NCBI GenBank assembly: GCA_023150805.1
Contig: JAKLKF010000008.1
Span: 17,469 to 81,468, forward strand
DNA length: 64,000 bases
Direction of reading: 5' to 3'
Source: Myxococcota bacterium
GTDB lineage: Bacteria; Myxococcota_A; UBA796; UBA2385
Each line of letters opens with the position of its first letter. Within the stretch, counting starts at the first letter, position 1. The notes under the pieces are model-generated. The model had not been told where the DNA came from and did no database searches. It saw only the letters and a list, made by a program, of their open reading frames with translations. Shown here in pieces: positions 2,536 to 38,330 of the stretch. The position numbers and the translations under genes are program-made.

Positions 2536-2537
2536 CC

Positions 2538-12712: not shown

Positions 12713-12718
12713 TAGGAT
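12713..12718 (+). promoter_or_regulatory. Candidate -10 hexamer TAGGAT 6 nt upstream of the ATG at 12725 (candidate leaderless start)
   Basis: No SD lies between the hexamer and the ATG. The same geometry recurs at several other first-in-operon genes (see findings). Confidence 0.35.
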
Positions 12719-12724
12719 GGCGGC

Positions 12725-14140: not shown

Positions 14141-16223
14141 GCCCGTGGTGCCGCGCTTCGAGGCGGTCCACGAAGACGGTGTCCGGCGCCTGGCGCGTGC
14201 CCTGCGGTCCAGCCCCCGCGGCTCCCTGTTGATGGTGGTGGGCAGGAGCGCGGCGCTGCGGGAGGACGCGCGAATGCGATTGGAGGCCAGCCTGGGCGAG
14301 CCCGTCGTCGAGCTGCTGCTCGATCCGGCCGAGCCCGCGCCCTGGGAGCGCATTCTCGCCCCCGAAGGGATCGTCCAGGCCGTGATGCCCCCTGTGCCCG
14401 CGCCGGAGCTCCTGCGCAAGCTCAACGTCGGGCGGGAGGCGCGTGTGCAGGCACGCCGGAGCGTCCTGCTGTGGGTGCCCGCCCTGGACCTGGTCGATGG
14501 TCTCCGGGAGCATGCGCCGGACCTGTGGGCCCACCGCCGGGACGTGATCTGGATGCTCTCCGCCGAGGACTTCGCCGTGCGGGTGCCACCGTTTTCCGGG
14601 GAGACGGAGGCCGCCGAGGTGAAGCGCCTGTGGACGCGGCTGGCGGAGGTGGATGGGCAGCGGGATCCACAGACGAGGGCGGCGATTGTGCGGAACCTCC
14701 TTCTTCACGCGGGAAGAGCCGTGTCGCCGGACCAGGCGCAGCGGCTGGTCGATGTGGCCTTTCGTTCGGAGCCGGGCTGGCTCGGTGTCTCCTGGTTCGT
14801 GATCGGTGCTCTCGGCGGCATCGCCCAGGTGGAGCAGGCGCACGTGTTGCTTTCGGCATCGGGTCCCGAGCTGGAGTGGCACACGCGGGGGTATGTACAA
14901 GTCGTACTCGACCAACACCGTCGCGCGCTTCGTGATGTCGTCGACCTGGTGCCCGCGCTCGAAAGCGGCCTGCCTGCCCGGCCCGTACCTTCCAACTTGG
15001 CGGCGCTGTTGCAGGCCAGGCGTACACGCGCCTTCACCGGCCTGTCGCTCCCGGGCCCCGCTCGCAAGACCCTCGCGGAATTCCAGGACGCCCTGTCGTC
15101 TCTGCCCCCTGGCTCCACGAAGGCTGGGGGCCTCTTCCGCGCGTTCGAACAGTCCGCCGCCATCGCCTCCCTGGAGGGCCGGCCCCTGGACGCGCTGCGC
15201 GACCTGGGTGAGGCCCGGGCGAATGCGGCTGCGGGAGGGATCGCCCAAGGTCGGGCGGTGACATCGGTCCCCTTCGCCCGCCTCCTCGCGCGCCTGGGCC
15301 AGCCACAGCTCGGGCTGGACACCCTGCTCGCCGATCTGACAGACCCGGAGCACCCGACCTGGCTGGTCACCCCCGAGCTGCTGCACACCGCTCACGATCT
15401 CGCCGTTCGCGTCGATCGCCTCGCCGACCTCCGCGCCGCCACCCAGGCGTGGTTGGATCGTACACCGTCGAGGAGGGGACTGCCCGGCCTCGCCGTCGCA
15501 TCTGCGCTCCGGCTCATGGAGCAGGCGGCCGAGGCGGACGCCCTGCTGCTCGACCTGGTCGAGCAGGGGCCCGGCCTGCCGGCGACGCGGGCGCTGGAGC
15601 TGCTCTGTGATGCCGCGGTCGACGTGGGCGACCTGGAGCGGGCCGCGCAGCTCGCCCTGGGCACGCTGCCATGGATCCTGGGTTGGGCGGGCACCATCTG
15701 GAAGGTGGAGGCCCACCTGCGCCTGGCCAGGGTGCGGCGCCTCGCCGGTCACCCCGCGTCGGCCGCCGCGAGCCTGGAGCGGGCGCGGCAGGTCCTCGCC
15801 CTCGACCCGGTGGACCTGCAGCCGGCGGACTCGTGGCTCGCGCTCGCTCGCGAGCAGCGGGATCAGTCGGAGGATCCGACGCCCGCTGGGCGCGCCCTCC
15901 GAGAAGCGCTGGCGCAGGTGCGGGCGCGGGGGCTGCGGACGCACGAGCTGGAGTTGCTGCTGGACCTGGCCGAGCTGCCCACCAGCGACGAGAGTCGGCA
16001 GGCCGAGGCGACCGAGGCGCTGACGTTGGCGACCGAGCTGGGTCTTCCCCTGGACCAGGCCCGCGTCCGCCTCGCCCTGGCGGACCTGGCCCTGCGTCAG
16101 GGCAGAGTGTCCAGTGTGCAGAGTCCGCTGGAGCAGGCCAACTGGTGGATCCAGCGGATCGGCGATGCTGCCAGCCGGCTTCGATGCCACGATCTTCGGA
16201 CCCGCCTTGCCGGCGTCACGTGA
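14133..16223 (+). CDS. Large helical-repeat (TPR-like) protein with a degenerate P-loop-like N-terminal domain
   Basis: Internal ATG of track ORF 14028..16223, overlapping the ATPase stop by 8 nt (ATGGCTGA). N-terminus SPRGSLLMVVGRSAALRED...RSVLLWVP. The C-terminal two thirds are helical repeats (ERAAQLALGTL..., HLRLARVRRLAGHPASAAASLERARQVLALDP, LALADLALRQG). It contains codons that are rare for this window (TAT GTA CAA GTC GTA at 14892-14906). Confidence 0.7.
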   Translation: MAEPVVPRFEAVHEDGVRRLARALRSSPRGSLLMVVGRSAALREDARMRLEASLGEPVVELLLDPAEPAPWERILAPEGIVQAVMPPVPAPELLRKLNVGREARVQARRSVLLWVPALDLVDGLREHAPDLWAHRRDVIWMLSAEDFAVRVPPFSGETEAAEVKRLWTRLAEVDGQRDPQTRAAIVRNLLLHAGRAVSPDQAQRLVDVAFRSEPGWLGVSWFVIGALGGIAQVEQAHVLLSASGPELEWHTRGYVQVVLDQHRRALRDVVDLVPALESGLPARPVPSNLAALLQARRTRAFTGLSLPGPARKTLAEFQDALSSLPPGSTKAGGLFRAFEQSAAIASLEGRPLDALRDLGEARANAAAGGIAQGRAVTSVPFARLLARLGQPQLGLDTLLADLTDPEHPTWLVTPELLHTAHDLAVRVDRLADLRAATQAWLDRTPSRRGLPGLAVASALRLMEQAAEADALLLDLVEQGPGLPATRALELLCDAAVDVGDLERAAQLALGTLPWILGWAGTIWKVEAHLRLARVRRLAGHPASAAASLERARQVLALDPVDLQPADSWLALAREQRDQSEDPTPAGRALREALAQVRARGLRTHELELLLDLAELPTSDESRQAEATEALTLATELGLPLDQARVRLALADLALRQGRVSSVQSPLEQANWWIQRIGDAASRLRCHDLRTRLAGVT

Positions 16224-20107: not shown

Positions 20108-21981
20108 ATGCCCATCCTCTTGATCATCCAGGTGCTCCTCGAACCCGACGGGGGCTGGCGTGTCGGCGCCGGCCTTGCTGGCTCGCGGCCGAGCTGGGGC
20201 CGCCTCGACCCCGACCAGGTGCGCGACCTGCTGGAGCAGGTCGAGGCCAGCCTGCGCGCCGACGACATGTCGCCCCTGCTGCTGGCGGGCGACGACGCGG
20301 CGGTGGCGGCGGGGGAGGAGCGCGCCGGCCGCCTGCTGGCCGCGGTGCTGGCCTCGTCTCCGGGCGTGGCGCGGGCGGTGTCCGAGCAGCGCGGCGCCGC
20401 GCGGGCGACGGGTCGCCCCCTGGTGATCGTGCTCGACGCCCACGACGAGACGATCCGTGCGCTGCCCTGGGAGTGCCTGGCCATCGACGTGGACGAAGGC
20501 CCCCTGGAGAGCGGGGGGGCGGCCTGGTGGTCCGGCTGGGCGCGGGCCTGGGGCCGCCGCCGTCGGGGGCGCTGCAGCCGGTCCTGTGGACCACCGACGC
20601 CGAGGACCCGGTGGTGCGGGAGCTGGCCGCAGACGTGGAGATGGCCTGTCGCAGCGCGGGCCTGCCGGCGCCGGTGCGTCCGGGGCCGGACGCCGCGGAG
20701 CGCCGGGGGCCGGGCCTGGTGTTCCTGGTGGGCCACGGCGAGTCGGTGGACCAGCACCTGCGCCTGTTGGGGCAGGACGGCGCGCTGGCGCCCGGGACGG
20801 TCGCGCACGCCCTGCAGCCCTGGCTGGCCGGGGCGGCGCTGGTGGTGCTGCTGGTCTGCGAGGGGGGGCTGCGCTCCATGCGCGCGCGCAGCGGCCTGGT
20901 CGACAGCATCCTGGCGGCGGGGGCGCCGGCGGTGCTGGCCAGCGACGCGCGCCTGGCGGCCCAGGCCGGGACCATGCTGGTGCGGGAGCTGGTGCCCGCG
21001 CTGGCGCGAGGGGACTCGCTGGCGCTGGCCGTGACGGCGGGGCGGCGGGCGGTCCGCGGCCTGGCCTGGCCCTTCCCCGACAGCCGCTGGTGGCGGCTGG
21101 GCTTGACCATCGGGCACGCCGAGGCGGTCGGCTGGGCGGGGCCCCGGCATCGCCTCCCCCACGGCTGGTCCCCGGGGCCCGAGGCGGGGCGGCTGCTCAC
21201 GGCGGCCATGGAGCACGCCGCCCGGCGGCGCCAGCGCTGGCTGGGGGTCGAGCACCTGGTCCTGGCCCTGCGCGACGGCCCCTCGCCCGTGCGGCGCGAG
21301 CTGCGCCTCGCCGCGCGCCACTGGAGCGCGATGCTGGCCGACTACCTCGACCAGTTCGAGCTGGTGGGCAACGTCCCGATGCGGCTGAGCCCGCGGCTGG
21401 TGCGGGTGCGGGACGCGCTGCCCGCGGGCTTCCAGGTCGACGACCTGGTCGAGGCGGTCCTGCAGGCGCTGCCGCCCGCCCTGCTGCGCCGGCTGGGGCT
21501 GCCGCTGGGGCGCGACGACGGCAGCACCTACCGCTTCGACTTCGACCCCTCGGACACCAGGCTGCCGTCGGTACCCCTGGGCGACGACCTCCTGGCGACC
21601 GAGGACGAGCGGGACCGCACCGACGACGGGACCGGGGAGCCCGGCGGGGAGGGGGATCCGTGCTGCGGCCTGGAGGTCCTGGGGGGGCCCGAGGACGGTC
21701 GCCGGATCGTCCCTGCGCCCGGGGAGGAGCTGGGGCGCTCGACCAGCTCGGCCCAGGCGGACCACGCGCTCTACCTGGACGCCGGGGGCATCGACCCCTT
21801 CCTGTCGCGGCGCCACCTGCGCTTCCTGGGCCCGTCGCGCGTGGAGCTGCTGCGCCCGGGTTACCGCCTGGTGTCCCAGCCCGGCCTGCGGCCGCGCGGC
21901 GAGATCGAGCTCCGCGTCGGCGAGATCCTGGGCTTGACCCCGCTGACCTGGCTGGTGGCGCTCGGCCCGTCGGAGCCGTAG
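20108..21981 (+). CDS. CHAT (caspase-like) protease with Clp_N-like repeat and C-terminal FHA-like domain; reading frame broken at a G7 run (20513-20519)
   Basis: N-terminal 135 aa are in the frame of track ORF 19637..21034 (MPILLIIQVLLEPDGG...ALPWECLAIDVDEGPLESGG). The rest is in the frame of ORF 20473..21981 (GLVVRLGAGLG...). CHAT dyad motifs LVFLVGHGES and LVVLLVCEGG. Clp_N-like RWLGVEHLVLALRDG. FHA-like GRS...LSRRHLRF. One extra G would restore a single 625-codon frame. Confidence 0.75.
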
Positions 21982-22053: not shown

Positions 22054-23682
22054 GTGCAGACGGCGGCGTACGTACAACGGCGAGGCGCCTGGCAGGTGAG
22101 CTCCCTGCGGGCGGCGGCGGCGTTGCGCGCGGGGGACCCGGCCGCGGCCCGCGACCTGGTCCAGACCGGCTGGCGGTTCTCGCCGGCGCAGGCCGAGGTC
22201 GTCTGCCAGCAGCTCCTCCAGACGCCGCCGGCCCCCGACGCCAAGGCGTGGGCGCTGGCGATGGAGGAGGGGCCGGGCCCGGACCTGCCCACCGCCCTGG
22301 ACTGGCGCGAGGAGGCCTGGCGCCGCGCCTGGCCCGACGGCGCGGTCGGCGATCCGCTGGCCTGGGGCCTGTGCGAGCTGGCCGCCCACGGGTGGCTGTT
22401 GGACCAGGTGGAGCGGCAGCCCTGGGAGGCCGTGAGCGCGCCGCCCGATCCGGTGGAGGATCGGGAGGTGGGTCGGCTCTGGTCGGCGTGGGCGGGCAGT
22501 CGCGCCTGGGAGATCCGGGACGAGTGGGAGCGGCGCTTCCTCAAGCCGGCCCTGCGGGCCTTCTCCGCCGTGCTGCGGGGCCGTCGGCTGCCCGAGGACG
22601 TGCGGCGACGCGCGATCCAGGACGCCCGCGAGGGCTTCTTCTACGTCCTGATCGGCGGCGCCGACCCGGGCGCGGGCTGGCGCGAGCTGGCGGTGCGGCT
22701 GCTGGAGGCCTCCGGCGGAGACCCGGTGGACGCGCTGGCCGGGGCGCTGCCGGCGGCGTCCTGGGAGCGGGTGGCGCGGTGCGCGGTCACGCGCGGCCAC
22801 GGGCGTGACACGGCCGCGATCGTCTGGGGCGGGGGCGTGGCCTGGCAGGTGCAGGCGCGAGACCTGGAGCGGCGGGGACAGGCGCGGCCCCAGGCCCTGG
22901 GCGACCTGCTGGACCTGCACCTGGCCCTGCGCCTGGTCGACTGCTGGACCTCGCCGGCGTTCACGGCGCCCGAGCGGGGGCTGTCGGTGATGGCCCACAA
23001 CCGGGGCCGCGCCCGCAGCCGCCTGCGCGCGGTGCTGCGGGAGGCGCCTGCCGAGCACCTGCTGGCGCAGATCCTCGCCCGCCCCGGGCTGGCGGCGCGG
23101 ACCCGCTCGACCGTGGCCCGCTTCGCGCGCGACTGGGCCTGGCAGCAGGTGCAGCACGGCTTCGCCTTCTACGACGCGCGCACGGTCGACCCCGCCTGCG
23201 TGCTTCCCGAGGGCTCCCCCCCGCGCCTGACCGAGGACGAGGCCGCCGCCCTGCGCGCCTGGCTGGTCCGGGTGGTGGTCAAGGCGCGCCTCCCCCACCT
23301 GCTGCAGTGGGTGCACGGCGGAGACGACCTGGACAAGCGCGACTCGACCTGGGGACGGCTGCTGGCCGACGACTGCCCGGCGTCGCTGCGCAGCTACCCC
23401 GGGGCCGCGCGGGGCGAGGGGCTCGCGCGCATGCGGGCCGAGCTGTCCGAGCACCTGCCGGCCCAGCTCCGCATGCTGCTGCCGACCCTGCAGGCCGTGG
23501 CGGCGCTGGACACGCGCGCCCGCGACCTGGAGGCGTCCTTCATCGCGGCCGTCACGCCGATCTGGCACGCGGATGTGGAGCTTCCTCGGGTACGATACCG
23601 GTCCTACGTGGAGTCCACGCGCGAGGCCATGGCGGCGGTGGAGCGCGCGGCGAACGCCCCGTCGGACCCGGAGGACGGATGA
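22054..23682 (+). CDS. Hypothetical protein, family X copy 1 (542 aa); paralog of 40538..42235
   Basis: GTG start preceded by TAGCTT-N6. Protein-like W/A/R/L-rich helical sequence. Clear similarity to the minus-strand gene at 40538 (ARFARDWAWQQVQHGFAFYD vs ARYAWDWAWREARVGFGFDP; ALAGALPAASWERVARC vs ALAGALGPAGWEQVAAC). Confidence 0.65.
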   Translation: MQTAAYVQRRGAWQVSSLRAAAALRAGDPAAARDLVQTGWRFSPAQAEVVCQQLLQTPPAPDAKAWALAMEEGPGPDLPTALDWREEAWRRAWPDGAVGDPLAWGLCELAAHGWLLDQVERQPWEAVSAPPDPVEDREVGRLWSAWAGSRAWEIRDEWERRFLKPALRAFSAVLRGRRLPEDVRRRAIQDAREGFFYVLIGGADPGAGWRELAVRLLEASGGDPVDALAGALPAASWERVARCAVTRGHGRDTAAIVWGGGVAWQVQARDLERRGQARPQALGDLLDLHLALRLVDCWTSPAFTAPERGLSVMAHNRGRARSRLRAVLREAPAEHLLAQILARPGLAARTRSTVARFARDWAWQQVQHGFAFYDARTVDPACVLPEGSPPRLTEDEAAALRAWLVRVVVKARLPHLLQWVHGGDDLDKRDSTWGRLLADDCPASLRSYPGAARGEGLARMRAELSEHLPAQLRMLLPTLQAVAALDTRARDLEASFIAAVTPIWHADVELPRVRYRSYVESTREAMAAVERAANAPSDPEDG

Positions 23683-23737: not shown

Positions 23738-24316
23738 GTGCGTCCTTCCCTGACGGACCTGCTGCTGCTGGAGGCGGGGGCCCTGGACCCCGCGCAGGCC
23801 GCCCGGACCCGCGCCTGGCTGGTCGCCCACCCCGAAGACGCCGTGGAGCTGGTGGACGACGAGCCCATCGCGTCCGCCTGGCGGCTGCCCCCGCCGGGGA
23901 TGGGCCTGGGGCTGCGCGCCGGGATGCCGGGGGTGCTCGCCGGAGAGGGGCTGCGCCCGGGGGACCGCGTGGACCTGCGGCTGGAGGCGCGCCCCGACGC
24001 CGATCGCCTGGGCGTGGTGCTGCTGCGCCAGGCGCAGGGCCCCGGCGCCGGGCCGTGGGCGGTGGAGGCGCCGCGGTCGCAGGCCGAGCTGGTGCCGCTG
24101 TCCCGCTACCCCCGCGAGGCGGATGGCCGGCACAGCCTGTCCGTGCGCGTGCAGCCGCCGGCGGGACGCCAGCGGCTGGGCCTGGCCCTGGTCCCCCTCG
24201 ACCTGCCGATCGACTGGACCGCGCCGGGCGAGGCGCGCTGGAGCGCCCTGCTGGAGGCGGTGCGGCGGGGCGAGGTCGCGGTCGGCACCACCGACCTGAC
24301 CGTCGGCGGAGGCTGA
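23738..24316 (+). CDS. Soluble RskA-like N-terminus / DUF4384-like protein, tandem copy 1 (192 aa)
   Basis: GTG at 23738 with GGGGAGG 6 nt upstream (internal to track ORF 23573..24316). N-terminus SLTDLLLLEAGALDPAQAARTRAWLVAHPEDA resembles anti-sigma-K (RskA) N-termini. Core LRPGDRVDLRLEARPDADRLGVVLL resembles DUF4384. No TM segment. Confidence 0.6.
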   Translation: MRPSLTDLLLLEAGALDPAQAARTRAWLVAHPEDAVELVDDEPIASAWRLPPPGMGLGLRAGMPGVLAGEGLRPGDRVDLRLEARPDADRLGVVLLRQAQGPGAGPWAVEAPRSQAELVPLSRYPREADGRHSLSVRVQPPAGRQRLGLALVPLDLPIDWTAPGEARWSALLEAVRRGEVAVGTTDLTVGGG

Positions 24317-24442: not shown

Positions 24443-25030
24443 ATGCCCGCCTTCGCCGACGCCACCCTGCTGCTCTTCGCCGCCGACGCCCTCGATCCGG
24501 GGCCGGCCGCGCTCCTGCGCGCCGAGCTGGCGCGGGACCCCGCGCTCCAGGCGCACCTGGACGCCCTGGCCCGCGACCTGGACGAGCTGCCCCCCTCGCC
24601 GGGCTTCCGGGTGCCGCCTCCGGGGCTCGGCCTGCAGGTCGGCCTGCAACAGTCGGCGGTCCTCGGGCCCGCGCTCCTGCGCGTGGGCGACCGCTTCGAG
24701 GTCTGCCTGCCTCCGCGCCCCTCCCCCGAGCGCGAGGGCGCGGTGGTGCTGCGCGACGTCGGCGCGGGCTGGCAGGTCGTGGCGCCGGTCCAGCCCGACC
24801 ACGCGGTGGCGCTCTCGCGCCTGCCCCGGGGATCGGACGGGTGCCACCAGGTGAACCTGCTCGCCCGTCCGCCGCAGGGGCGCCAGCGCTGGGCGGTCGC
24901 GCTGGTCCCGATGGACCAGCTCCCCGGGGCGCCGCCGCCGGTGCCCTCGGTCGAGCCGTGGCACAGCCTGCGGCAGGGCCTGGCCGCGGGCACGGTGCCG
25001 GTCGGCGTGGTCGAGATCGAGCTCTGTTGA
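24443..25030 (+). CDS. Soluble RskA-like N-terminus / DUF4384-like protein, tandem copy 2 (195 aa)
   Basis: Internal ATG of track ORF 24359..25030, with CGGAGG upstream. MPAFADATLLLFAADALDPGPAALLRAELARDPALQAHLDAL. Core LLRVGDRFEVCLPPRPSPEREGAVVL. Collinear similarity to the preceding gene (GRQRLGLALVPLD vs GRQRWAVALVPMD). Confidence 0.65.
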   Translation: MPAFADATLLLFAADALDPGPAALLRAELARDPALQAHLDALARDLDELPPSPGFRVPPPGLGLQVGLQQSAVLGPALLRVGDRFEVCLPPRPSPEREGAVVLRDVGAGWQVVAPVQPDHAVALSRLPRGSDGCHQVNLLARPPQGRQRWAVALVPMDQLPGAPPPVPSVEPWHSLRQGLAAGTVPVGVVEIELC

Positions 25031-25046: not shown

Positions 25047-27862
<2,816 letters not shown>

Positions 27863-27866
<4 letters not shown>

Positions 27867-28672
27867 GCTGCGCCGACTACCTCGCCGCCCTGGCCACCTT
27901 CGCCGCCCCCCTCGCCGTCTCCGACCACAAGAAGGTCAAGGCGCCCACCGCCACCAAGACGGCCGGCGCCGCGATCCGGGTGCAGACGGACGGCGGCACC
28001 TTCAACCTGCTGCCCGTGCCCGGCCTGACCTTCCCCGGCCCCGGCGGCCTGCTGGGCGACTTCCTGGCCGGCCAGGCGGCCAGCACCTACACGACCTGGC
28101 TGCCCGGGGTCTCCGGCGGGCTGGCTTCCTGGCAGGAGGACTGGATCGTGCGCGACCCGGCCGCCTTCGCCGACCCGCCGACCCTGCAGCTGTGGAGCAA
28201 GGTCAGCGGCGACCTGCTGGACGACGCCGAGCTGGCCGTGCTGAAGGCCGAGGCGCTGGCCCAGGGGCTGGGCTACCAGCGGGCGACGATGACCTTCCGC
28301 TACCAGAAGGTGCCTTCGACCCAGCAGATCAACGCCGCCCCCGCGCCGGTGGGCTGCGCGCCGACCCGCGCCGCCTTCGCGCTGTGGCCCGTCGTCGACC
28401 ACAAGGTCGGCCTGGTCCCCACGGCCGCGCTGCTGCGCGAGGACGTGCCGGGCACGGGCAAGCGGGTCGACCACTGGCTGCTGGGCTCGGGCTGGCAGCC
28501 GCCCCTGGGCACGACCGAGGCGCTGTGGGTCAAGGCCGCCGCGGCGCCCCTCGACCTGAAGGCGTGGCTGCTGTCGTACTTCCCGGCAGTCGGCGCCGGC
28601 GCCTTCGGCGCGGCCAACGTGCGCGGCGACAGTCGCTACGTGCAGATCCAGTACGGCCTCGCGCCCCTCTGA
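27863..28672 (+). CDS. Hypothetical protein (269 aa, Cys at position 3), between the kinase and S8 genes
   Basis: The ATG overlaps the kinase stop (ATGA). MSCADYLAALATFAAPLAVSD...; mixed beta-rich composition (TMTFRYQKVPSTQQI, DSRYVQIQYGLAPL). No signal peptide or TM segment, and no family recognised. Confidence 0.65.
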
Positions 28673-28735
28673 CCGGCCGCGCCCCCCTCCCGCCCCTGCT
28701 CCCCGCTCCCTCCCGCCGCCCCCGCGGAGCCCCCG

Positions 28736-31700
28736 ATGCCCTCCTCCACCGACGTCCTCGTCGACAAGCTCGATCCCCGGCTCGCCAGCCTGCTGCGCGT
28801 GACCCCCCAGGCCCTGCTGGACCTGGTGGACCGCGACCTGCGGGTCGGGCGCGACCTGGACCTGCGGCGCCAGGTCCTGCGGCCCGACCTGGCGCAGACC
28901 TTCGACGACCTTCACGACGAGCCGGACGACGGGCCGCGCTCGCCCGACGGCGACCCCGACGAGGCAGTCGGCGCGCGGCTGGCCGCCTTCGCGGCGCGGG
29001 CGCGCGCGGCGATCGACGCCCGGCACGGCGCGGTGCTGGGGCGTACGCGGGCCTCGGCGGCCGTCGCGACGCCGGTGGCGCTCTCGCCCCTGACCACCGG
29101 GGTCCGCAAGGGCCTGGACGGCGTGGCGCGGATGCGCGTGCTGGTGCGCGGGGACGTGACCGACGAGGCGCTGGGCGGCGATGCGGTCGTGCGGGCGCGG
29201 GCCGGCCGGGTGGCCCTCTGCGAGCTGACCCCGGCCCAGGTGCGGGCCGTCGCCGCCCTCGACGGCGTCGAGCAGGTCGAGCTGGCGCGGCCGGTGCACG
29301 CCGCGCTGGACCAGGTGCGGGAGGAGCTGGGCATGCCCGGCGACGGGGCCGCCGCCGCCGCCGCCGACCTGCCGACCGGCAAGGGCGTGGTCATCGGCGT
29401 CGTCGACTTCGGCCTGGACCTGCACCACAGCGAGCTGCGGCGCGCCGACGGCAGCAGCCGGGTGCTCGGGCTGTGGGACCAGGCGGCGCCCGAGGGCCCC
29501 CACGGGCGTCGGCCGGCCGCCGGCTACGGCTGGGAGTGGGACGCCGCCGACATCGCCGCCGAGCTGTCCGGCGGCGCGCCGCCCTACGCGGTCGTCCCCC
29601 ACCGCTGGGACCGCCAGGGCGGCCACGACCCCGAGGTCGACGGCCCCGCCGGCGGGCTGTGGATGCGCCACGGCACCCACGTGGCCTGCGTGGCCGCGGG
29701 CAACGGCCACAGCGGCCTGCCCGGCGTGCGCGGCATCGCACCCGACGCCGAGCTGCTCTTCGTCAGCCTGGACCCGGCCGTGCGCCTGGCCGGCGCCGAG
29801 GACCTGTGGGGCGTGGCCGGGGTCGACCGGGTCGTCGAGGGCGTCAAGTGGATCCTGGCCCGCGCCGACGCGCTGCAGGCCGAGCGCGGGCAGGACCTGC
29901 CCGTCGTCATCAACCTCAGCCTGGCCGACTACACCGGCCCGCACGACGGCCACAGCAACCACCAGGCCTTCCTGGACGCCCTGCAGGACCTGCCCGGCCG
30001 GATCGTCGTGGTCGCCGCCGGCAACGCCAACGACCAGGGCGGGCACGTCTCCAGGGGGCTGCACCCGCGCGGCAGCGTGGACCCCCGCGGCGCCCACGGC
30101 GCCACGCTGGCGCTGGAGGTCGACGAGGGCGCGGTGGCCGACGACGCCTGCGAGCTGTGGCTGGAGGGGCTGGAGGACGTGGCGCTGCGGCTGACCATCC
30201 CCGGCGGAGACACGACGCTCTCGCTGCCGATGGGCCAGGCTGGCGCCGACGTGGTCGTCACCGCGGGCGATCGGCGCGTGCGCCTGCTGGCCGCCCGCGT
30301 CAAGCGGCGCGAGGCCGAGCTGCAGGGCATCCGGGTCGACATCCTGGTCGAGCAGGGCGGCCTGCCGACCGGCACCTGGGCCCTGGACCTGTCGGGCCCC
30401 GGTCACCAGGCCCGCGAGCTGCACGCCTGGCTGGAGTGGAGCAACGCCGGCCACCGCCGCTGGGTGGACGCCGTCGACGGCGAGCTGACCATCAGCGACC
30501 TGGGCACGCACGACGCGCTGCTGGTGGTCGGATCGACCGGCAAGCGCCTGGGCGGCGCCCTGTCCACGCCGGCGCGCCACTCGGGGCGGGGGCCGACCCG
30601 CGACGGCCGCCAGAAGCCGGACATCGCCGCCCCGGGCAACAACCTGCGCCTGTCGGAGCCGCACGGGCGCGTCCACCGCGGCAGCGGCACGGGCAAGGAG
30701 TACCTGCGCGGCTCGGGCTCGGGCACCAGCCTGGCCACCGCGGTCGTCAGCGGCGCCTGCGCCGTCATCCTGGAGTGCCGCGGGGTCCCCGGCCAGCCGG
30801 CCATGCTGACCACCTCCGAGCTGCGCCAGATCCTGCGCAGCACCGCCCGCCGCGAGGTGGGAGCACCCACCGGGCTGCGCGTGGACTTCGAGGACGGGGT
30901 CCACCCCGCGGTCGGCGCGGGGGTGCTGGACCTCGCCGCCGCCTGCCGCGCCCGCCGGTCGGCGGCGGACCTGTGGAGCGCCAGCAGCCCCAAGGACGAG
31001 GGCGTGCAGCCCCGCGCCGCGCCCTTCTTCTGGGTCTCCCCGGACATCGAGGTGGAGCCCAGCGGCGCGCCGCGCGGCGCCACCCCCGCCGGCGCCCGGG
31101 TGCGGGTGACCGTGCGCAACCGGGGCGAGGCCGACGCCCACGGCGTCCGCGTCGCGCTGGGGTGGGGGCCCCCGATCACCTGGCTGCCGGTCGATCCCGA
31201 CTGGCTGCGCCGGGGCGAGGGGCCGGGCTGGAGCCGCCTCCGCCGCGGGCGGGACCCGGGCGACGGTGCCCTGGCCTGGTCCGGCGAGGGGGTACAGGCC
31301 GACCGCACCCGCAGCGCGGTGGCCCTGGTGGGCCGGGTGCCCGCGGGCGGGCGCGCGGTCGCCGAGTTCGAGTGGGCCGCCCCCGACGACGCCCCCTCCG
31401 CCGAGCAGGTCGCCTGGTTCGCGATGGTCAGCGGCGGCGAGGACCCCGACGCCGGCCCCTTCGGGCGGGTGGTGTCCGCCTCCTCCCACCTGCTGCTGCG
31501 CAGCCGGAACGAGGTGGCCACCCGGTCGGTGGTCTCGCTGACCCCGGACGCCGACGGGCAGGCCGAGCTGCGGCTGGAGGTGCACGGCACCCCGGAGCGC
31601 GACGGCCTGCTGCTGCGCGGCGAAGGCGGCGCCCGGATCCTCTCGGTCCACCTGCCCTCCCAGGCCCTGCCCTTCTACGCCGGCGTGCCGACGGCGCTGC

Positions 31701-32074
31701 TGGCGGCACGCAGCCGCTCCGGCGCCCTGCGCGACGGCTCCCTGGACGATGCCCGGGCCGCCGAGCGCGCGCTGCTGGAGGCCCTGGGCGACGGTCGCGC
31801 GGCCGACCCGGTCGCGACCCTGGGCGCCCGCGGCTTCTCCCGCCTCTCGCTCCACGAGGACAAGCTCCTCGGCGTGCGGGCCGACCTGGTCGCCTCCGGC
31901 GGCGCCCCGGTCCTCCCGGAGCTGCGCCTGGAGGCCGGCGCCCTGCTGCCGGTCGCCGTCCGCTTCGCCGGCCCGCCGGGCGCCACCGTGCACGTCGTCC
32001 ACCTGGCCGACGCCCGGCCCATCGGCGGGGTCACGGGGCTGCTGGCGGGGAGCGCGGGATGGACGCACCGCTGA
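28736..32074 (+). CDS. Subtilisin-like S8 serine peptidase, cytoplasmic (no signal peptide), with a large C-terminal extension
   Basis: 1112-aa ORF with GCGGAG upstream. Catalytic motifs GVVIGVVDFGLD (Asp), HGTHVACVAAGNG (His), VINLSL (Asn) and GSGTSLATAVVSGA (Ser). The C-terminal ~400 aa include a CARDB-like beta-sandwich segment (RVRVTVRNRGEADAHGVRVALGW). Confidence 0.9.
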   Translation: MPSSTDVLVDKLDPRLASLLRVTPQALLDLVDRDLRVGRDLDLRRQVLRPDLAQTFDDLHDEPDDGPRSPDGDPDEAVGARLAAFAARARAAIDARHGAVLGRTRASAAVATPVALSPLTTGVRKGLDGVARMRVLVRGDVTDEALGGDAVVRARAGRVALCELTPAQVRAVAALDGVEQVELARPVHAALDQVREELGMPGDGAAAAAADLPTGKGVVIGVVDFGLDLHHSELRRADGSSRVLGLWDQAAPEGPHGRRPAAGYGWEWDAADIAAELSGGAPPYAVVPHRWDRQGGHDPEVDGPAGGLWMRHGTHVACVAAGNGHSGLPGVRGIAPDAELLFVSLDPAVRLAGAEDLWGVAGVDRVVEGVKWILARADALQAERGQDLPVVINLSLADYTGPHDGHSNHQAFLDALQDLPGRIVVVAAGNANDQGGHVSRGLHPRGSVDPRGAHGATLALEVDEGAVADDACELWLEGLEDVALRLTIPGGDTTLSLPMGQAGADVVVTAGDRRVRLLAARVKRREAELQGIRVDILVEQGGLPTGTWALDLSGPGHQARELHAWLEWSNAGHRRWVDAVDGELTISDLGTHDALLVVGSTGKRLGGALSTPARHSGRGPTRDGRQKPDIAAPGNNLRLSEPHGRVHRGSGTGKEYLRGSGSGTSLATAVVSGACAVILECRGVPGQPAMLTTSELRQILRSTARREVGAPTGLRVDFEDGVHPAVGAGVLDLAAACRARRSAADLWSASSPKDEGVQPRAAPFFWVSPDIEVEPSGAPRGATPAGARVRVTVRNRGEADAHGVRVALGWGPPITWLPVDPDWLRRGEGPGWSRLRRGRDPGDGALAWSGEGVQADRTRSAVALVGRVPAGGRAVAEFEWAAPDDAPSAEQVAWFAMVSGGEDPDAGPFGRVVSASSHLLLRSRNEVATRSVVSLTPDADGQAELRLEVHGTPERDGLLLRGEGGARILSVHLPSQALPFYAGVPTALLAARSRSGALRDGSLDDARAAERALLEALGDGRAADPVATLGARGFSRLSLHEDKLLGVRADLVASGGAPVLPELRLEAGALLPVAVRFAGPPGATVHVVHLADARPIGGVTGLLAGSAGWTHR

Positions 32075-33705
32075 GCGGCGGGGGCGCGCGTCCGGCCGCC
32101 GGGCGGGCGGCCACGGGGCGCCAGGACCTCGCGCGCCGCGCGGAGCAGGCCCTCACCGGCGTCGCCGTCGTGGTGGTCGGCGTCGCGGCGGCCTGGGACC
32201 GGGTGGGGGACCTGTCCCGGGTGGCGGTGGACCGCGACTGGAGCTGGTTCCTGCGGGCCGGCGAGCAGCTCGCGCACGGCTACGACTGGGGCGGGCCGGT
32301 CATGTTCATGTACCCGCGGGCCTCCTCGGGCTTGATCGGCCTGCTGGGCAGGCTGCTGGACGGGCCCTGGGCCGCGGTGGCCGCCTTCACGGTGCTGTGC
32401 AGCCTGGCGATGCCGCTGTCCCTGCTGGCGGTCCGACAGGTGGCGGGCCTGCCCGCGGGCCTGGTCGCCGCCGGTGTGCTCTGGGTGTCGGCCAGCCAGC
32501 GGGCCATCGGCGTCGGCCTGAAGTCGCCCTACATGCTGCCGGCGGTCACGGCGCTGCTCGCCCTGGGGCTCGTCGCCTCCGCGCACCGGCGGCCCTGGGC
32601 CCTCCCGCTGGTCGCCTTCGCGGGCTCCGCGTCGGTGTGCCTGCACGTGGGGACCGGGCCGGCCGCGGTCTTCGCGGGCCTGCTGGCCCTGGGGGGCCTG
32701 CCGCTGCTGGCCGGCTGGCGGCAGCGCCTGGGCAGCGTGCTGGGCGCGGTCGCCGCCGGTGGACCGCTCTCGGCGTGGGTGCTCCTGGGGGATCTGCCCC
32801 GGCTGCTGGGCAGCCTGCGCAGCCACCAGGGCCGCAGCGTGGAGGGGGCCCAGCCGGTCCAGGAGCTGCTCCTGCGCCTCCAGCAGGGGCTGTCCCTGAC
32901 CCTGGAGACCGCCCGGCCCCTGGCCCTGGTCGCGGTCGCCGGCCTGGTCCTGGGCCTGGTCTGGGCCCTGCTGCCGGCCCCGGCGGAGCGCCTCGACGCC
33001 CGGCGGGCGCACCGCGCGCGGTGGTCGGGCAGCGTCCAGGTCCTCCTGCTTGCGGGGGTCCTGCTGGCGCCCTACCTCGAGAACCTGTACGCGCTGCGCT
33101 ACGCCGAGGTGCACCACTTCGTGGGGGCGGTCCCGCCGCTGGTGGTCGCGTTGGCCGGGCTGTCCGCCGCGATCCTGCCGCCCCGGGTGCGGGTCCTGGG
33201 CTGGCTGCTGGCGGCGGCCTCGTTGCTGCCCTGGCTGCGGGACGCGCGCGACATCGCGCCCTCGAGGCCGAGCACGCCGGTCGCGATGCACCTGGCCGCC
33301 CCCCTGCTGGACCTGGGCCAGGCCATGCGCGACCAGAGCGAGGGTCGGCAGCCCGTCGTCATCGCGCTCACGGACCAGCCCAGGGCCTCCGACCTGGAGC
33401 TGGTGTCCGTGGTCGCCACCGAGCTGCCCCAGCTCCGGCGCGCGGCGGTGCAGGGGCAGCCGCCCACCTGCTTCCTCCTGTTCCAGGGCGCGGTCCCTCC
33501 CTTCGCGCTGGCGCTGCCCGCGCTGTCCCTGCCCACCCTGCCCGGGCTGGACGTGCGCCACGACGAGGACTGCCAGGCCACCCGCGCGCAGGCGGCGACC
33601 TTCTGCCAGCCGGCGCCCGGCCAGACGCCCTTCTTCCGGCAGCCCTTCGGCCACCCGCTGGCGGAGGACGAGCTGCTGGGGGCATGTCCCCCGCGGCCGC
33701 GGTAG
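32059..33705 (+). CDS. Polytopic membrane protein (about 10-12 TM segments; GT-C glycosyltransferase-like topology is only a guess) with a C-terminal soluble domain
   Basis: Internal ATG of track ORF 28192..33705, overlapping the S8 gene by 16 nt. Many hydrophobic segments (GVAVVVVGVAAAW, AAVAAFTVLCSLAMPLSLLAV, LPAVTALLALGLVASA, LALVAVAGLVLGLVWALL, VLGWLLAAASLLPWL). Confidence 0.7.
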   Translation: MDAPLSGGGARPAAGRAATGRQDLARRAEQALTGVAVVVVGVAAAWDRVGDLSRVAVDRDWSWFLRAGEQLAHGYDWGGPVMFMYPRASSGLIGLLGRLLDGPWAAVAAFTVLCSLAMPLSLLAVRQVAGLPAGLVAAGVLWVSASQRAIGVGLKSPYMLPAVTALLALGLVASAHRRPWALPLVAFAGSASVCLHVGTGPAAVFAGLLALGGLPLLAGWRQRLGSVLGAVAAGGPLSAWVLLGDLPRLLGSLRSHQGRSVEGAQPVQELLLRLQQGLSLTLETARPLALVAVAGLVLGLVWALLPAPAERLDARRAHRARWSGSVQVLLLAGVLLAPYLENLYALRYAEVHHFVGAVPPLVVALAGLSAAILPPRVRVLGWLLAAASLLPWLRDARDIAPSRPSTPVAMHLAAPLLDLGQAMRDQSEGRQPVVIALTDQPRASDLELVSVVATELPQLRRAAVQGQPPTCFLLFQGAVPPFALALPALSLPTLPGLDVRHDEDCQATRAQAATFCQPAPGQTPFFRQPFGHPLAEDELLGACPPRPR

Positions 33706-34601: not shown

Positions 34602-35489
34602 CTACAGGCCGCAGGCCCCGCTGTCTCCCAGCTCCTCCGTCCAGCCCTCGCTGTCCCAGGACCAGGTCGCCTCGCCCGAGGACGACCAGCACTGGCGGAG
34701 CTGCACGGTCGCCGCGTACAGGTCCCCGCCCGACAGCCAGGCGTCGCCCCGGCCGGTGCCGTCGCTCAGCCAGCGGCTCTCGACCGTCAGCGCCTCGTCG
34801 CCGGCCCCGTGCAGCGCCGGTACCGCGTCCGCCGGCTGGCTGTGCGAAAGGCGCCCGCCCCCGTCGGCCTCCTCCGTCCAGGTCCACTGCTGGTCGATGG
34901 CGCCCCCGCCCAGGTCCAGCGCCGTCACCACGGCGCCGATGGTGGGCGTGTCCCGCAGGTCGTAGGTGATCGCGACCTCCCCCTGCCCGGTCGGATCGCG
35001 CCACCACACGGCGCCCTCGCCGAGCGCGACCTGCTCCTCGCCCACCTCGTGGCGCCCCTCCAGCAGCTCGGCCCAGGGTCCGGCCGAGGTCTCCGCCACC
35101 TGGAAGGCGTAGGTGTAGAGGGCCCCGGTCGAGGAGCGGCTCAGCTCCACCCGCAGGAACCAGTCGGGATTGTCCTCGTAGGGGAAGGGCCCCCACACCC
35201 GGTAGTCCTCGCCGCGCTCGGAGGGGGGCAACGCCAGCACCTGGGCGGTGGCGTCGGTGGCCAGGGCCAGCACCGCGCCGCCGACGCTCAGCGTCTGCAC
35301 GGTGATCGCGTACAGATCGGCGGGGTCCTCGACCACGCCCTCGGCCGGCGCCGGGTAGGACAGGGCGAGGTGCTGGTCGCTGGGCAGGGCGGCGGCGAAG
35401 TCGGCGTCGTCCAGGAACAGGTCGTTGGAGAAGGTGCTGCCGCAGGCCGACAGCAGCAGGACCAGGCCGGCGGCGGGCAGGGTGGTCAT
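34602..35489 (-). CDS. Lipoprotein, family L copy 1 (paralog of 45043..45993)
   Basis: Internal ATG (35489) of track ORF 34602..35852. Lipobox LLLSAC. Shares SRWL..G.GRGDA.L..G...CW and a C-terminal GACG/A with the 45043 gene. Its start overlaps the caspase gene stop by 1 nt. Confidence 0.75.
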   Translation of the reverse strand: MTTLPAAGLVLLLSACGSTFSNDLFLDDADFAAALPSDQHLALSYPAPAEGVVEDPADLYAITVQTLSVGGAVLALATDATAQVLALPPSERGEDYRVWGPFPYEDNPDWFLRVELSRSSTGALYTYAFQVAETSAGPWAELLEGRHEVGEEQVALGEGAVWWRDPTGQGEVAITYDLRDTPTIGAVVTALDLGGGAIDQQWTWTEEADGGGRLSHSQPADAVPALHGAGDEALTVESRWLSDGTGRGDAWLSGGDLYAATVQLRQCWSSSGEATWSWDSEGWTEELGDSGACGL

Positions 35490-37069
35490 CAGAAGCGGTA
35501 CCCCGCGGCCAGCAGGAGCTGGTGCATCGTGAACAGGGGCAGGTCCTCCTCCAGGGCGACCGGCACCAGGTGCTCGCGCCAGGACAGCTCGGCCTCCAGG
35601 CGGCGGTGGCGGACGCCGACCCAGGCGTCCATGCCCGGTGACAGCGTGGACAGTCGCTGGGCTGGCACCTGCTGGGTCGGGTCGAAGCTTCGGCCCAGCC
35701 ACAGCGCGTCGGCGCGCAGGCCGATGCCCGCCTGCACCGTGCGGGGCCGCGTCGCGTAGCCGGCGGCCGCGCCCAGGCCCGCCCCGGCCAGCCCGGCCGC
35801 CACCGTGCTGGTGTCGGTGATCGCCAGCGACCCGGCGCCGACCCCGCCCCACAGCTCGGCCGAGGCCCAGCGCCCGTCGCGCCAGTACAGTCGCCAGGTG
35901 GCGCTGGCCACCGGGATGTCGGGCAGCCAGGCGGCGCGCACCCGGGCCCCGTCGGCGCCCAGCACGCCCAGGCCCAGCCGCAGCGCCGTGTCCGGCAGCT
36001 CCGCCTGGCGGATCCGGGCCTCGATGGCGCCCTTGGCCTCGTCGTCCTCGTACTCCATCGCCGAGAAGGCCAGGCCCGCCGCGTCGATGGACTGTCCATC
36101 GCGCACGGTGACCTCGGCCACCTTCAGGTGGGTCGGCAGGCGCCGTCGCACCTGGTAGCGGCCCGGCGGCAGGTGCACGCGGCGGTCGGTCGGGGACTCG
36201 GCCACTTCGGCGACGTAGGCCCGGCGGTCCAGGTCGAAGATGGCGAAGGCGCCGTCCAGGTCGGGGCCGAAGGCCAGGCTGCCGCGGGACGGGTCCAGCT
36301 CGGCCAGGACCAGGTCGCCCTCGCCGGACAGGGCCCAGTCGAAGGTGGGGTGCTGGGTGCCGATGCGGGTGGCCGAGGTCCGCAGCACGGTCTCGTGGTA
36401 GACGAAGGCGTAGGCCTCCGACAGGGTGACGGCCCGGTCGCCGTCGGCGTCGGCGGCGCCGTACAGGCCGCTGGCCAGGTAGTGCGTGAAGTACGATCCG
36501 CCGATCTCGTCGGACTCCTGGCTGGCCTCGTCGCCCGTCGAGCTGGTGATGAAGACGGTGCCGCTGGTGCCCAGGCGCTCGGACAGCTTCACCTCGAAGG
36601 CCGGCACCCGGCTGCCCCCCTTGCTGCGGGTCGCCGCGCCGCTGTGACAGGCGTCGAGCAGGGCCAGCCGCACGTCGGCGCCGGTCTCGGCCAGCAGGCG
36701 CTCCAGCTCGTCGTAGTCCAGGCGGCTCTCGCCCATGAGCAGGGACTGTTCATCGCCGTGGCCCGACCAGTAGAACAGGAAGACCACCTCGTCGCCCTCG
36801 GCGTGGGCCCGGGCCACGGCGCGCCGGGCCTGGGCGAAGGCGTCCTGCACGCGGTCGGCCGTCGCCTCCCGCACCAGGTCGACGTCGGCCTCGTCGTAGC
36901 CGCCGACGTCGACCAGCACGTCGCGCAGCTTCCCGGCGTCGTCCTCGGCGAAGTACAGCGAGCGGTAGACCATCCCGGCGTCGTTGTTGGCGGCCACCAG
37001 GGCGAAGCGGCGCACCTCGGCCGCCGCCGGGCCGGCGAGGGAGAGCGCGAGCAGGGCCGGGCCGATCAC
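35489..37069 (-). CDS. Caspase-family (peptidase C14) protein with signal peptide and C-terminal beta-barrel-like domain
   Basis: GTG start overlapping the anti-sigma stop (GTGA). Signal IGPALLALSLAGPAAA. C14 dyad motifs VVFLFYWSGHGD and RLALLDACHSGA. The C-terminal ~170 aa are Gly/aromatic strand-rich and end AAGYRF, an OMP-like terminal Phe. Confidence 0.85.
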   Translation of the reverse strand: MIGPALLALSLAGPAAAEVRRFALVAANNDAGMVYRSLYFAEDDAGKLRDVLVDVGGYDEADVDLVREATADRVQDAFAQARRAVARAHAEGDEVVFLFYWSGHGDEQSLLMGESRLDYDELERLLAETGADVRLALLDACHSGAATRSKGGSRVPAFEVKLSERLGTSGTVFITSSTGDEASQESDEIGGSYFTHYLASGLYGAADADGDRAVTLSEAYAFVYHETVLRTSATRIGTQHPTFDWALSGEGDLVLAELDPSRGSLAFGPDLDGAFAIFDLDRRAYVAEVAESPTDRRVHLPPGRYQVRRRLPTHLKVAEVTVRDGQSIDAAGLAFSAMEYEDDEAKGAIEARIRQAELPDTALRLGLGVLGADGARVRAAWLPDIPVASATWRLYWRDGRWASAELWGGVGAGSLAITDTSTVAAGLAGAGLGAAAGYATRPRTVQAGIGLRADALWLGRSFDPTQQVPAQRLSTLSPGMDAWVGVRHRRLEAELSWREHLVPVALEEDLPLFTMHQLLLAAGYRF

Positions 37070-37782
37070 GGCGCCTTGCCGACGGAGAGGACGGCGACGC
37101 CGGGGTCGGTCTGCGCGAGGGAGGCCACGGCAGCCTGCCCGCCCCGGGCCTGGGCGGCCCGCACCATTGCGACGGCCTCGGCGGTGCTGGCCGGCCCGAA
37201 GACCGCGACGAACAGCTCGGGCCCCGGCGCGTCGTCCAGGGCCACGGCGTCCACCAGCAGGCCGCGCTGGTCGGGGTCGACCGGCACCGGGGGCTGCTCG
37301 ACCCGCTCGGGGTACAGCAGGCTGACCCGGCCCCGGCCGTCGACCGAGAGCACGACCACCTCCTCGTGGCCGTCGGCCTGGACGGCGAAGCGCACCCGGT
37401 CGCCCTGCGCCAGCACCTCGCCCTCCTCCACCTGCACCGCCTGGCCCCCGCGCTGCACGTACAGGTCCAGGTCGACCCGGCCCTTGGCCCGGTTGGCGCC
37501 GGGCTCGGGCAGCACGGCGACCAGGGCCAGTGCGGCGGCCAGCAGGGGGATCAGCAGCAGGGCCGGTCGCCAGGAGCGCCGGGGCGGGCGCGCGGCGGAC
37601 GGGGGCGGCCGGATCCGGTCCAGGTCCAGCGGGGGGAGGTCGGCGCGGGCCGCCTCCAGCTCGCGGGCGTGGCGGTGCAGGGCCAGGTGGTCGGCCAGGC
37701 CCAGGTCGGCCTCGCCCAGGAGCTGCCGCTCCAGGTCCAGCCGGGACGGGCGGTCGCCCTGGTTCAGGTCGAGGCGGATCAT
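37066..37782 (-). CDS. Anti-sigma factor, single-pass membrane protein with periplasmic DUF4384-like domain
   Basis: Internal ATG (37782) of track ORF 37066..38253; ATGA overlap with the sigma gene stop. N-terminus LDLERQLLGEADLGLADHLALHRHARELEA. TM WRPALLLIPLLAAALALVAVL. DUF4384-like GEVLAQGDRVRFAVQADGHEEVVVLSVDGRGRVSLLYP. Confidence 0.75.
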   Translation of the reverse strand: MIRLDLNQGDRPSRLDLERQLLGEADLGLADHLALHRHARELEAARADLPPLDLDRIRPPPSAARPPRRSWRPALLLIPLLAAALALVAVLPEPGANRAKGRVDLDLYVQRGGQAVQVEEGEVLAQGDRVRFAVQADGHEEVVVLSVDGRGRVSLLYPERVEQPPVPVDPDQRGLLVDAVALDDAPGPELFVAVFGPASTAEAVAMVRAAQARGGQAAVASLAQTDPGVAVLSVGKAP

Positions 37783-38330
37783 GGCAGCACCAGGAGCAAC
37801 AGCGCCGCGCCCGCCGCCACCAGGGGGCCGGCCTTCTGCTGCGCGCGGGCCAGGAAGTCGTTCAGCCGCTTGCGCACGGTGGGCACCGAGAGGCCCACCA
37901 GCCGCGCCGTCTCCTCCTTGCTCAGGTCGTCGAAGAACAGGTGCACGACGATGGCCTGGGTCTGCTCCTCCTCGTCCTGGAGCAGGGCGCGCACCGTGTC
38001 GCGGTCCTCCCACCGCTCGGCGCTGAGCACCCTGCCGGACAGCCCCTCCAGCAGCGCGTGGTGGCGGTCCTGCTTGTCGGCGCGGCCCCGGCGGTTGCGG
38101 AGCTGGTTGAGGCACCAGTTCGTCGAGATGCGGTACATCCAGGTCAGGGGCGAGGCGTCCTGGCGGAAGCCGTCCCAGTGCTGCACCACGCGGGCGAAGG
38201 TCTCCTGCACGGCGTCCATGGCCTCCTCCTCGTCGCCGAGGATCCGCCGGCACCGGTGGAGGATGACGGGCCCGTAGCGCTCGTAGAGGTGGCGCAGCTC
38301 GGGGTCGGTCGGGGGCATCGGCGGCTCCAT
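37779..38330 (-). CDS. ECF-type RNA polymerase sigma-70 family factor
   Basis: 183-aa ORF. Region 2 (EEAMDAVQETFARVVQHWDGFRQDASPLTWMYRISTNWCLNQLR) and region 4 HTH (LSKEETARLVGLSVPTVRKRL). Confidence 0.9.
   Translation of the reverse strand: MEPPMPPTDPELRHLYERYGPVILHRCRRILGDEEEAMDAVQETFARVVQHWDGFRQDASPLTWMYRISTNWCLNQLRNRRGRADKQDRHHALLEGLSGRVLSAERWEDRDTVRALLQDEEEQTQAIVVHLFFDDLSKEETARLVGLSVPTVRKRLNDFLARAQQKAGPLVAAGAALLLLVLP

Follow-up and report, generated by a model that had tools for sequence, protein, structure and literature searches.

What is the role of a small protein whose gene is wedged between those of a protein kinase and a protease? The question is raised by a stretch of 64,000 nucleotides from a Myxococcota bacterium (GenBank assembly GCA_023150805.1, contig JAKLKF010000008.1, positions 17,469 to 81,468), hereafter the window, in which gene X lies between a Hanks-type Ser/Thr kinase gene and a gene for an S8 (subtilisin-family) peptidase. 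A first-pass annotation of the sequence had proposed that X is a substrate or effector of the protease, possibly a gasdermin-like one. We find that X is the middle gene of a conserved kinase–X–S8 module in Myxococcota-type bacteria, and that its product belongs to a family that is real, very rare, and unnamed. X is probably a dedicated partner or substrate of the kinase/protease pair. Its membership among the gasdermins fails.

The kinase–X–S8 module and the X family

Long open reading frames (ORFs) arise by chance in very GC-rich DNA, and the GC content of the window is 72–81%. GC content per codon position was used as the test for coding ORFs. The values for X (0.71/0.54/0.98) match those of the flanking kinase (0.83/0.55/0.96) and S8 gene (0.83/0.55/0.98), whereas the same frame continued upstream of 27863 (0.99/0.84/0.57) resembles non-coding DNA. 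X is therefore a real gene and not a chance ORF of 78% GC DNA. Its ATG at 27863 shares the sequence ATGA with the kinase stop codon (TGA, 27864–27866), its own TGA occupies 28670–28672, and the S8 gene begins after a gap of exactly 63 nt, all in agreement with the first-pass annotation. The product begins MSCADYLAAL, carries a second Cys at position 165, and is deposited as MCK6502527.1, which an exact-sequence look-up shows to be annotated as “hypothetical protein.”

Contigs were recovered for eleven distinct family members, including the window; most are short metagenomic contigs. Loci of relatives are given L numbers, and individual proteins P numbers. The tightest partner of X, a point absent from the first-pass annotation, is the kinase: directly upstream of X, 11/11 distinct contexts have an orthologue of it, represented on short contigs by the helical C-terminal part. 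The two genes overlap in the window, L002, L016, and L006, at a gap of −4 nt; at the other loci they are 4 to 48 nt apart. The kinases of these loci are 30–59% identical over hundreds of residues (30–46% across all clades). An S8 gene adjoins X in ten of the eleven contexts, and the neighbor is kept by X homologues down to 20–28% identity. It is co-directional and immediately downstream in 8/11, at gaps of −4 to 63 nt, and convergent with X in L022; X stands upstream of S8 in every co-directional context. The expectation that homologues in other genomes would also neighbor proteases was thus borne out.

The S8 partners fall into three types that can barely be aligned with one another, one of about 1000 aa with a “KLDPRLA” motif, one of 832–1234 aa, and one of 420–850 aa, and the three clades of X coincide with them. 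Similarity between pairs of X proteins correlates with that between the corresponding pairs of S8 proteins (Spearman 0.56, p = 3.5e-4, 36 pairs), in a small sample whose pairs are not independent. Together with the adjacency, this tracking agrees with the protease partnership that the first-pass annotation had read from genomic position. Alignments show Asp, His, Asn, and Ser to be kept in all complete S8 partners. The S8 partner of a lower-GC (65%) member (L020, 4370–8071) carries a C-terminal von Willebrand factor type A (vWA)-like DxSxS motif (metal ion-dependent adhesion site, MIDAS), as read from sequence only.

The S8 slot varies at some loci. At L013 (6863–12610; also L014 and L015), genes for a forkhead-associated (FHA) protein, the kinase, X, a 232-aa S8 remnant, and a 368-aa protein follow one another; the remnant keeps the Asn/Ser half of the catalytic residues and lacks Asp and His. 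This variant was seen in many samples, and the index lists 27 blocks of the collection for it. At L017 (5528–11519), the kinase and X are followed by a HerA/DUF87 ATPase (794 aa, PADLOC mad8-like, 7e-14), with no protease in the S8 slot. Judging from the gene order at L017, the downstream partner with which X works can be a different one.

In the window, the kinase domain spans residues 87–329, with the motifs HRDLKPAN, DLG, and APE, and is followed by an α-helical C-terminal region of about 600 aa that matches no Pfam family. The kinase domain matches the PADLOC models PD-T4-6 and mad6 of MADS at 1e-47 to 1e-49; these matches are owed to nothing more than a generic Hanks kinase domain. The S8 peptidase (MCK6502528.1) comprises an N-terminal KLDPRLA motif, a pro-region-like segment, a catalytic domain at about residues 215–700, and a β-rich C-terminal region of about 400 aa. 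Its full-length relatives all keep Asp224, His312, Asn430, and Ser665, and a Pfam scan found no recognized sensor domain in the peptidase. The description of this protease as signal-less holds: its charged N-terminus contains no hydrophobic stretch, and the only 19-residue window above a Kyte–Doolittle value of 1.6 is the catalytic-Ser helix. No such window occurs in X or the kinase, giving no sign of a transmembrane segment in either. All three proteins are predicted to be cytoplasmic, with neither transmembrane segment nor signal peptide.

In the clade with the long S8 type, X and S8 share a frame, and the spacer is a multiple of three (63 nt in the window, 36 nt in L002 and L018, and 48 nt in L009). 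We rejected an X–S8 fusion by stop-codon readthrough, as the L009 spacer contains a second in-frame stop and, in the other clades, the two genes either overlap or differ in frame. Downstream in the window, a gene for a 548-aa multi-pass membrane protein (32059–33705, + strand) has its start 16 nt ahead of the S8 stop, which suggests translational coupling. Its product has no match in Pfam or PADLOC, and we excluded the gene from the module, as it is not conserved beside S8 in L016 or L018.

The X family is small by every search. A word-indexed search of 5.8 billion clusters returned only four relatives, at 55–99% identity, and wider profiles gained little there. An exhaustive hidden Markov model search of 1.84 billion cluster representatives, with a profile built from the close relatives, gave 20 proteins at E ≤ 1e-3, 18 of them 190–300 aa in length. 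P0009 and P0011, two long proteins that match the profile in 11 and 13 stretches, were taken as artefacts; P0009, the one inspected, proved to be a tandem-repeat surface protein. A pattern search of genome and metagenome contigs with the X alignment found no loci. The equivalent search with the S8 alignment found only the locus of the metagenome-assembled genome (MAG) UBA2385 (L018 = L024), and no contig was recovered for P0036. All recovered family loci have a GC content of 65–76%. None of 21 family members matched Pfam (its Gasdermin family included), NCBIfam, or the defense-system library PADLOC (E ≤ 10), or PHROGs (E ≤ 1).

Conservation across the family is concentrated in W90-x-E92-x-W94, F145-x-Y147-x3-P151, L190-x-R192, D203-(H)-W205-x-L207, and a C-terminal RYVQxQY; the window protein includes L190-x-R192-E and D203-H-W205-x-L207 among these. 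Cys3, His22, and Cys165 are invariant in the closest clade only (eight sequences plus the copy in MAG UBA2385, L018). Cys3 is kept in 8/8 sequences of the close-clade alignment A3 and in the L018 copy; P0010 and all distant members have another residue there or none, and the N-termini of the distant members differ from MSC.

Predicted fold and the gasdermin question

The structure of X was predicted with AlphaFold 2 (AF2). An alignment of five close sequences gave an unusable model, with a predicted local distance difference test (pLDDT) value of 38, and was replaced by one of 21 sequences, which gave a pLDDT of 87.3 and a predicted template modeling (pTM) score of 0.87. As the first-pass annotation had anticipated, the model is β-rich, with about 10 strands and 2–3 helices. 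An N-terminal helix (residues 3–14, pLDDT 95) precedes a Ser/Thr/Gly/Ala-rich linker (residues ~31–45) that is modeled as disordered (pLDDT 38–57 over residues 31–50). The core contains helices at 121–133 and 232–239 and ends in a well-packed C-terminal strand. Residues 240–269 reach a pLDDT of 95–97, and the last 12, which form the RYVQxQY strand, are among the best-conserved segments of the family.

In the model, the hydrophobic N-terminal 17 residues form an amphipathic helix that packs against the core. We rejected MSCADYLAALATFAAPLAV as a signal peptide or lipoprotein signal, given an acidic n-region, no lipobox, and the packed position of the helix in the model. In distant family members the equivalent helix is internal, which likewise argues that it is not a signal peptide. 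Translation and hydropathy agree with the earlier description of a protein that begins MSC and has neither a signal peptide nor a transmembrane segment. A Foldseek search of the model against 350,542 Protein Data Bank (PDB) chains returned nothing at E < 1e-3, and a search of BFVD gave no match. The fold of X is predicted with confidence, has no Foldseek match among solved structures, and is apparently novel.

The first-pass annotation had suggested that X may be gasdermin-like. X would then be a divergent bacterial gasdermin, that is, a palmitoylated pore-former activated when the neighboring protease removes an inhibitory peptide. Several traits recall the bacterial gasdermins that are encoded with caspase-like, CHAT, or subtilase proteases, whose defining features include an N-terminal C3/C4 (Johnson et al., 10.1101/2021.06.07.447441). 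These traits are the length of 269 aa, the M-S-C N-terminus of the close clade, the β-rich character, and the protease genes in the same operon, with S8 in 10/11 contexts and CHAT in the cassettes of the window, L016, and L018. The comparison goes no further than the protease neighborhood and the clade-restricted Cys3. In addition to the library scans, which included Pfam Gasdermin at E ≤ 10, alignment of the X family profile with the human GSDMD N-terminal domain by hhalign gave a probability of 0.2%. Gasdermin chains are present in the PDB copy that was searched and are not among the top 50 Foldseek matches of the confident X model; by this comparison the model does not match the gasdermin-N fold with its twisted central antiparallel sheet. 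A short, divergent C-terminal inhibitory peptide after a flexible loop was not seen either; the C-terminus of X is a conserved core strand, and its sole flexible segment lies near the N-terminus. Unlike a bacterial gasdermin, X also has an obligatory kinase partner. Membership fails on sequence, profile, Foldseek fold, and C-terminus, and we regard a gasdermin identity as very improbable.

The role of X between kinase and protease

Of the roles that we weighed, we lean, tentatively, towards X as a dedicated substrate or partner through which the kinase and the protease act. This reading is supported by synteny across deep divergence, by the divergence of X clades in step with S8 type, by the retention of catalytic residues in the complete S8 partners, and by the predicted cytoplasmic location of all three proteins. 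FHA modules also recur with the kinase, fused to the CHAT protease in the window, if our reading of its C-terminus is correct, and separate in L013. FHA domains are readers of phospho-Thr. X may be latent and soluble, with a β-rich core capped by the N-terminal helix. The kinase, with its 600-aa helical tail, would act as the sensor, and on its signal S8, or else the FHA-guided CHAT protease, would cut X, perhaps once a Thr of the Ser/Thr/Gly-rich linker (residues ~15–45) has been phosphorylated. The freed core could then serve as an effector or switch. The AF2 model also favors this reading: its one flexible linker, of biased composition, keeps docked helix and core apart and would be accessible, a candidate position at which X may be phosphorylated, bound by FHA, and cut. 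We infer the physical interactions of X, its phosphorylation, its cleavage and the site thereof, and its downstream activity.

Ten linked protease–effector modules, for which conserved adjacency and partner–protease congruence were used as indicators, have been described recently (Evans et al. 2025, PMC12642450). In the four that were characterized, the partner is cleaved by the linked protease and becomes toxic; the introduction of that work adds gasdermin, Csx30, and CalpT, and the protease classes that such modules use include S8 subtilases. X displays both indicators, namely protease adjacency across very divergent homologues and a partner that diverges together with its protease type. Like the partners in these modules (gasdermin, Pepco/Trypco, EACC1, zymogens of the MBL-fold and α/β-hydrolase types, CATASP, Csx30, and CalpT), it is a small to medium-sized protein encoded beside a cytoplasmic protease. 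By analogy, the logic of the X module would be that of the gasdermin, Pepco, and EACC1 modules, even though X itself is not a gasdermin. The X module differs in that no sequence match links the family to any of these partners, the protease has no fused sensor, and a separate Hanks kinase is a constant third component. It also lies in no defense island and has an extremely narrow distribution (20 clusters among 1.84 billion representatives).

Several observations weigh against X as such a substrate or effector. Its link to the kinase is tighter, and more nearly universal, than its link to S8. X persists in L017 with the HerA/DUF87 ATPase in the S8 slot and in L013 with a remnant that lacks the Asp/His half of the active site, which argues that X is not strictly dependent on S8 cleavage. 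We found no transmembrane features, known toxin or enzyme domain, or fold match for X. The window offers no defense-island context, and in PADLOC it matches no more than the generic models for kinase, subtilase, and caspase. Finally, with so tiny a family, only about 11 contexts, mostly short metagenomic contigs, underlie the statistics.

Some of these observations lend weight to a different role, in which X is a regulatory or adaptor subunit of the kinase, or its phospho-substrate, and is not cleaved. The kinase and X would form the constant core of the module, which senses and transduces, and the downstream gene, be it one of the three S8 types or a HerA-like ATPase, its exchangeable output. 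Beyond the invariable kinase neighbor and the 4-nt start/stop overlaps, this arrangement would account for the retention of X beside an ATPase or a decayed S8. It also fits the downstream partner being the most variable component and the kinase the most conserved, outputs being usually the variable part. In the model, the alternating residues W90/E92/W94, F145/Y147, L190/R192, and D203/W205/L207 would share one face of a sheet and could serve as a binding surface. Conversely, if X ignored the protease, the S8 adjacency in 10/11 contexts and the tracking of S8 type by X clades would be hard to explain. The alignment contains no family-wide invariant Ser/Thr to mark a phospho-acceptor, and the Pfam, NCBIfam, and PADLOC scans revealed no similarity to a known kinase-regulatory domain. 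An adaptor role is possible, and we consider it a little less likely than that of a substrate or effector.

A further precedent comes from within the phylum, the window being part of a Myxococcota MAG. In Myxococcus xanthus, the protease PopC has no signal peptide and is held by the operon-encoded PopD, which is degraded on starvation (PMC6434023). By this precedent, X would be a retention factor or inhibitor that holds the signal-less subtilase and is degraded upon a kinase- or starvation-linked signal, freeing the protease for action or export. Both systems combine a myxobacterial signal-less S8 protease with a small, soluble, domain-less partner in an operon. The gene order is reversed, however, with popD downstream of popC (PMC4320627) and X upstream of S8, and no kinase is reported in the popC–popD operon. 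In addition, X persists without an active S8 in L013 and L017. No protein from cultured Myxococcus was detected, since the profile search gave 20 clusters only and NCBI copies were found for just one of the ten looked up (P0016, on metagenomic contigs). Given the reversed gene order, and with homology to PopD (MXAN_0207) judged only indirectly, from that profile search, we keep PopD as an analogy only. A PopD-like function for X appears unlikely.

In the substrate or partner reading that we favor, the part of the first-pass proposal that stands is positional, namely a protease substrate or effector as suggested by S8 adjacency and clade tracking; the gasdermin identity does not. Ser/Thr-kinase systems that share the kinase domain and accompanying FHA modules (PD-T4-6 and mad6 of MADS in PADLOC, and FHA–kinase pairs) offer a different comparison, and the likeness extends to L017, where a HerA ATPase resembling mad8 accompanies the kinase and X. 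The listed PADLOC kinase systems have neither X nor the kinase–X–S8 order. The features new here are the obligatory kinase, the FHA/CHAT layer, a fold that is apparently novel, and a new protein family.

The surrounding cassette and other genes of the window

The trio is part of a larger CHAT/FHA cassette, which the first-pass annotation had not described (Table 1). In the window, a CHAT/Clp_N/FHA protease, a 542-aa protein, two paralogous proteins of about 190 aa, the kinase, X, and S8 are encoded in this order. The same order is found in L016, where X is 27% identical, and in MAG UBA2385 (L018), and part of it in L001, whose contig starts with a partial orthologue of the CHAT gene. The genes beyond S8 differ between loci, which places the end of the cassette at S8.

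CHAT and Clp_N were also found in the L016 orthologue; the FHA-like C-terminus of the window protein was assigned by inspection of its sequence alone. The CHAT gene of the window is frameshifted within a G7 run (~20513–20519), and its L018 orthologue (2254–4032) occupies a single frame. The frameshift is either a homopolymer assembly error or the mark of a pseudogenized protease. In L013, the gene for the separate FHA protein overlaps the kinase start. The 542-aa protein has no match in Pfam or PADLOC and has orthologues at the same position in L001, L016 (37% identity), and L018 (61% identity). The two ~190-aa paralogs are 39% identical to each other, with an anti-sigma-like N-terminal helix and a weak DUF4880 match (E = 0.029); L016 and L018 have one copy of this gene, and L001 has two.

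Table 1. Coordinates of the module, its cassette, and an opposite-strand protease cluster in the window
Feature	Position	Strand	Details
CHAT (caspase-like) protease with Clp_N-like repeat and FHA-like C-terminus	20108–21981	+	CHAT 3.3e-07; first cassette gene
Conserved 542-aa protein	22054–23682	+	Second cassette gene
~190-aa protein, paralog a	23738–24316	+	Start inferred from L001 orthologue
~190-aa protein, paralog b	24443–25030	+	Start inferred from L001 orthologue
Hanks-type Ser/Thr kinase	25047–27866	+	939 aa; Pkinase 1.4e-32; stop overlaps X start
Gene X	27863–28672	+	269 aa, soluble; new family without annotation; coding signal, homologues, conservation, AF2 model
X–S8 spacer	28673–28735	+	63 nt; GGAG ~8 nt before S8 ATG at 28736
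Signal-less S8 (subtilisin-family) peptidase	28736–32074	+	1112 aa; Pfam Peptidase_S8 5.3e-27; PADLOC “subtilase” 1.3e-21
Lipoprotein-like gene	34602–35852	−	Cluster 34602–38330
Peptidase_C14 caspase-like protein	35489–37069	−	Pfam 1.1e-11; PADLOC “caspase” 9e-07
Putative anti-sigma factor	~37066–37780	−	Cluster 34602–38330
Extracytoplasmic function (ECF) sigma factor	37779–38330	−	Cluster 34602–38330

Elsewhere in the window, the neighbors are housekeeping or surface genes, among them an aromatic ammonia-lyase, uvrB, FG-GAP proteins, and a DsbA-like protein. The protease cluster on the opposite strand (34602–38330) recalls protease/anti-sigma defense modules. At 12716–16223 (+ strand), a gene for an AAA_16/AAA_22-type ATPase (474 aa) overlaps the next one, whose 737-aa product has no match in Pfam or PADLOC, and the two could be a pair akin to signal transduction ATPases that have numerous domains (STAND).

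The kinase–X–S8 module is compact, and its three soluble proteins make it suited to reconstitution, biochemistry, and structure determination. Even if X is only an adaptor, it presents an unmatched, confidently modeled fold, and its gene keeps a fixed place beside those of a kinase and a subtilase. Should cleavage or phosphorylation of X trigger an output, X would add a new effector fold to the protease-licensed modules and tie protease-licensing logic to eukaryote-like Ser/Thr-kinase and FHA signaling. Myxococcota are known for multicellular development and programmed lysis. It is possible that X represents a new, structurally novel family of protease-licensed effectors or switches, gated by a Hanks kinase and an FHA-guided CHAT protease instead of STAND, CRISPR, or other known sensors. 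Such a unit may constitute a Myxococcota cell-fate module, possibly for programmed cell death, abortive infection, or development. Since the window has no defense island, a role in myxobacterial signaling, development, or programmed death is as plausible as one in phage defense.

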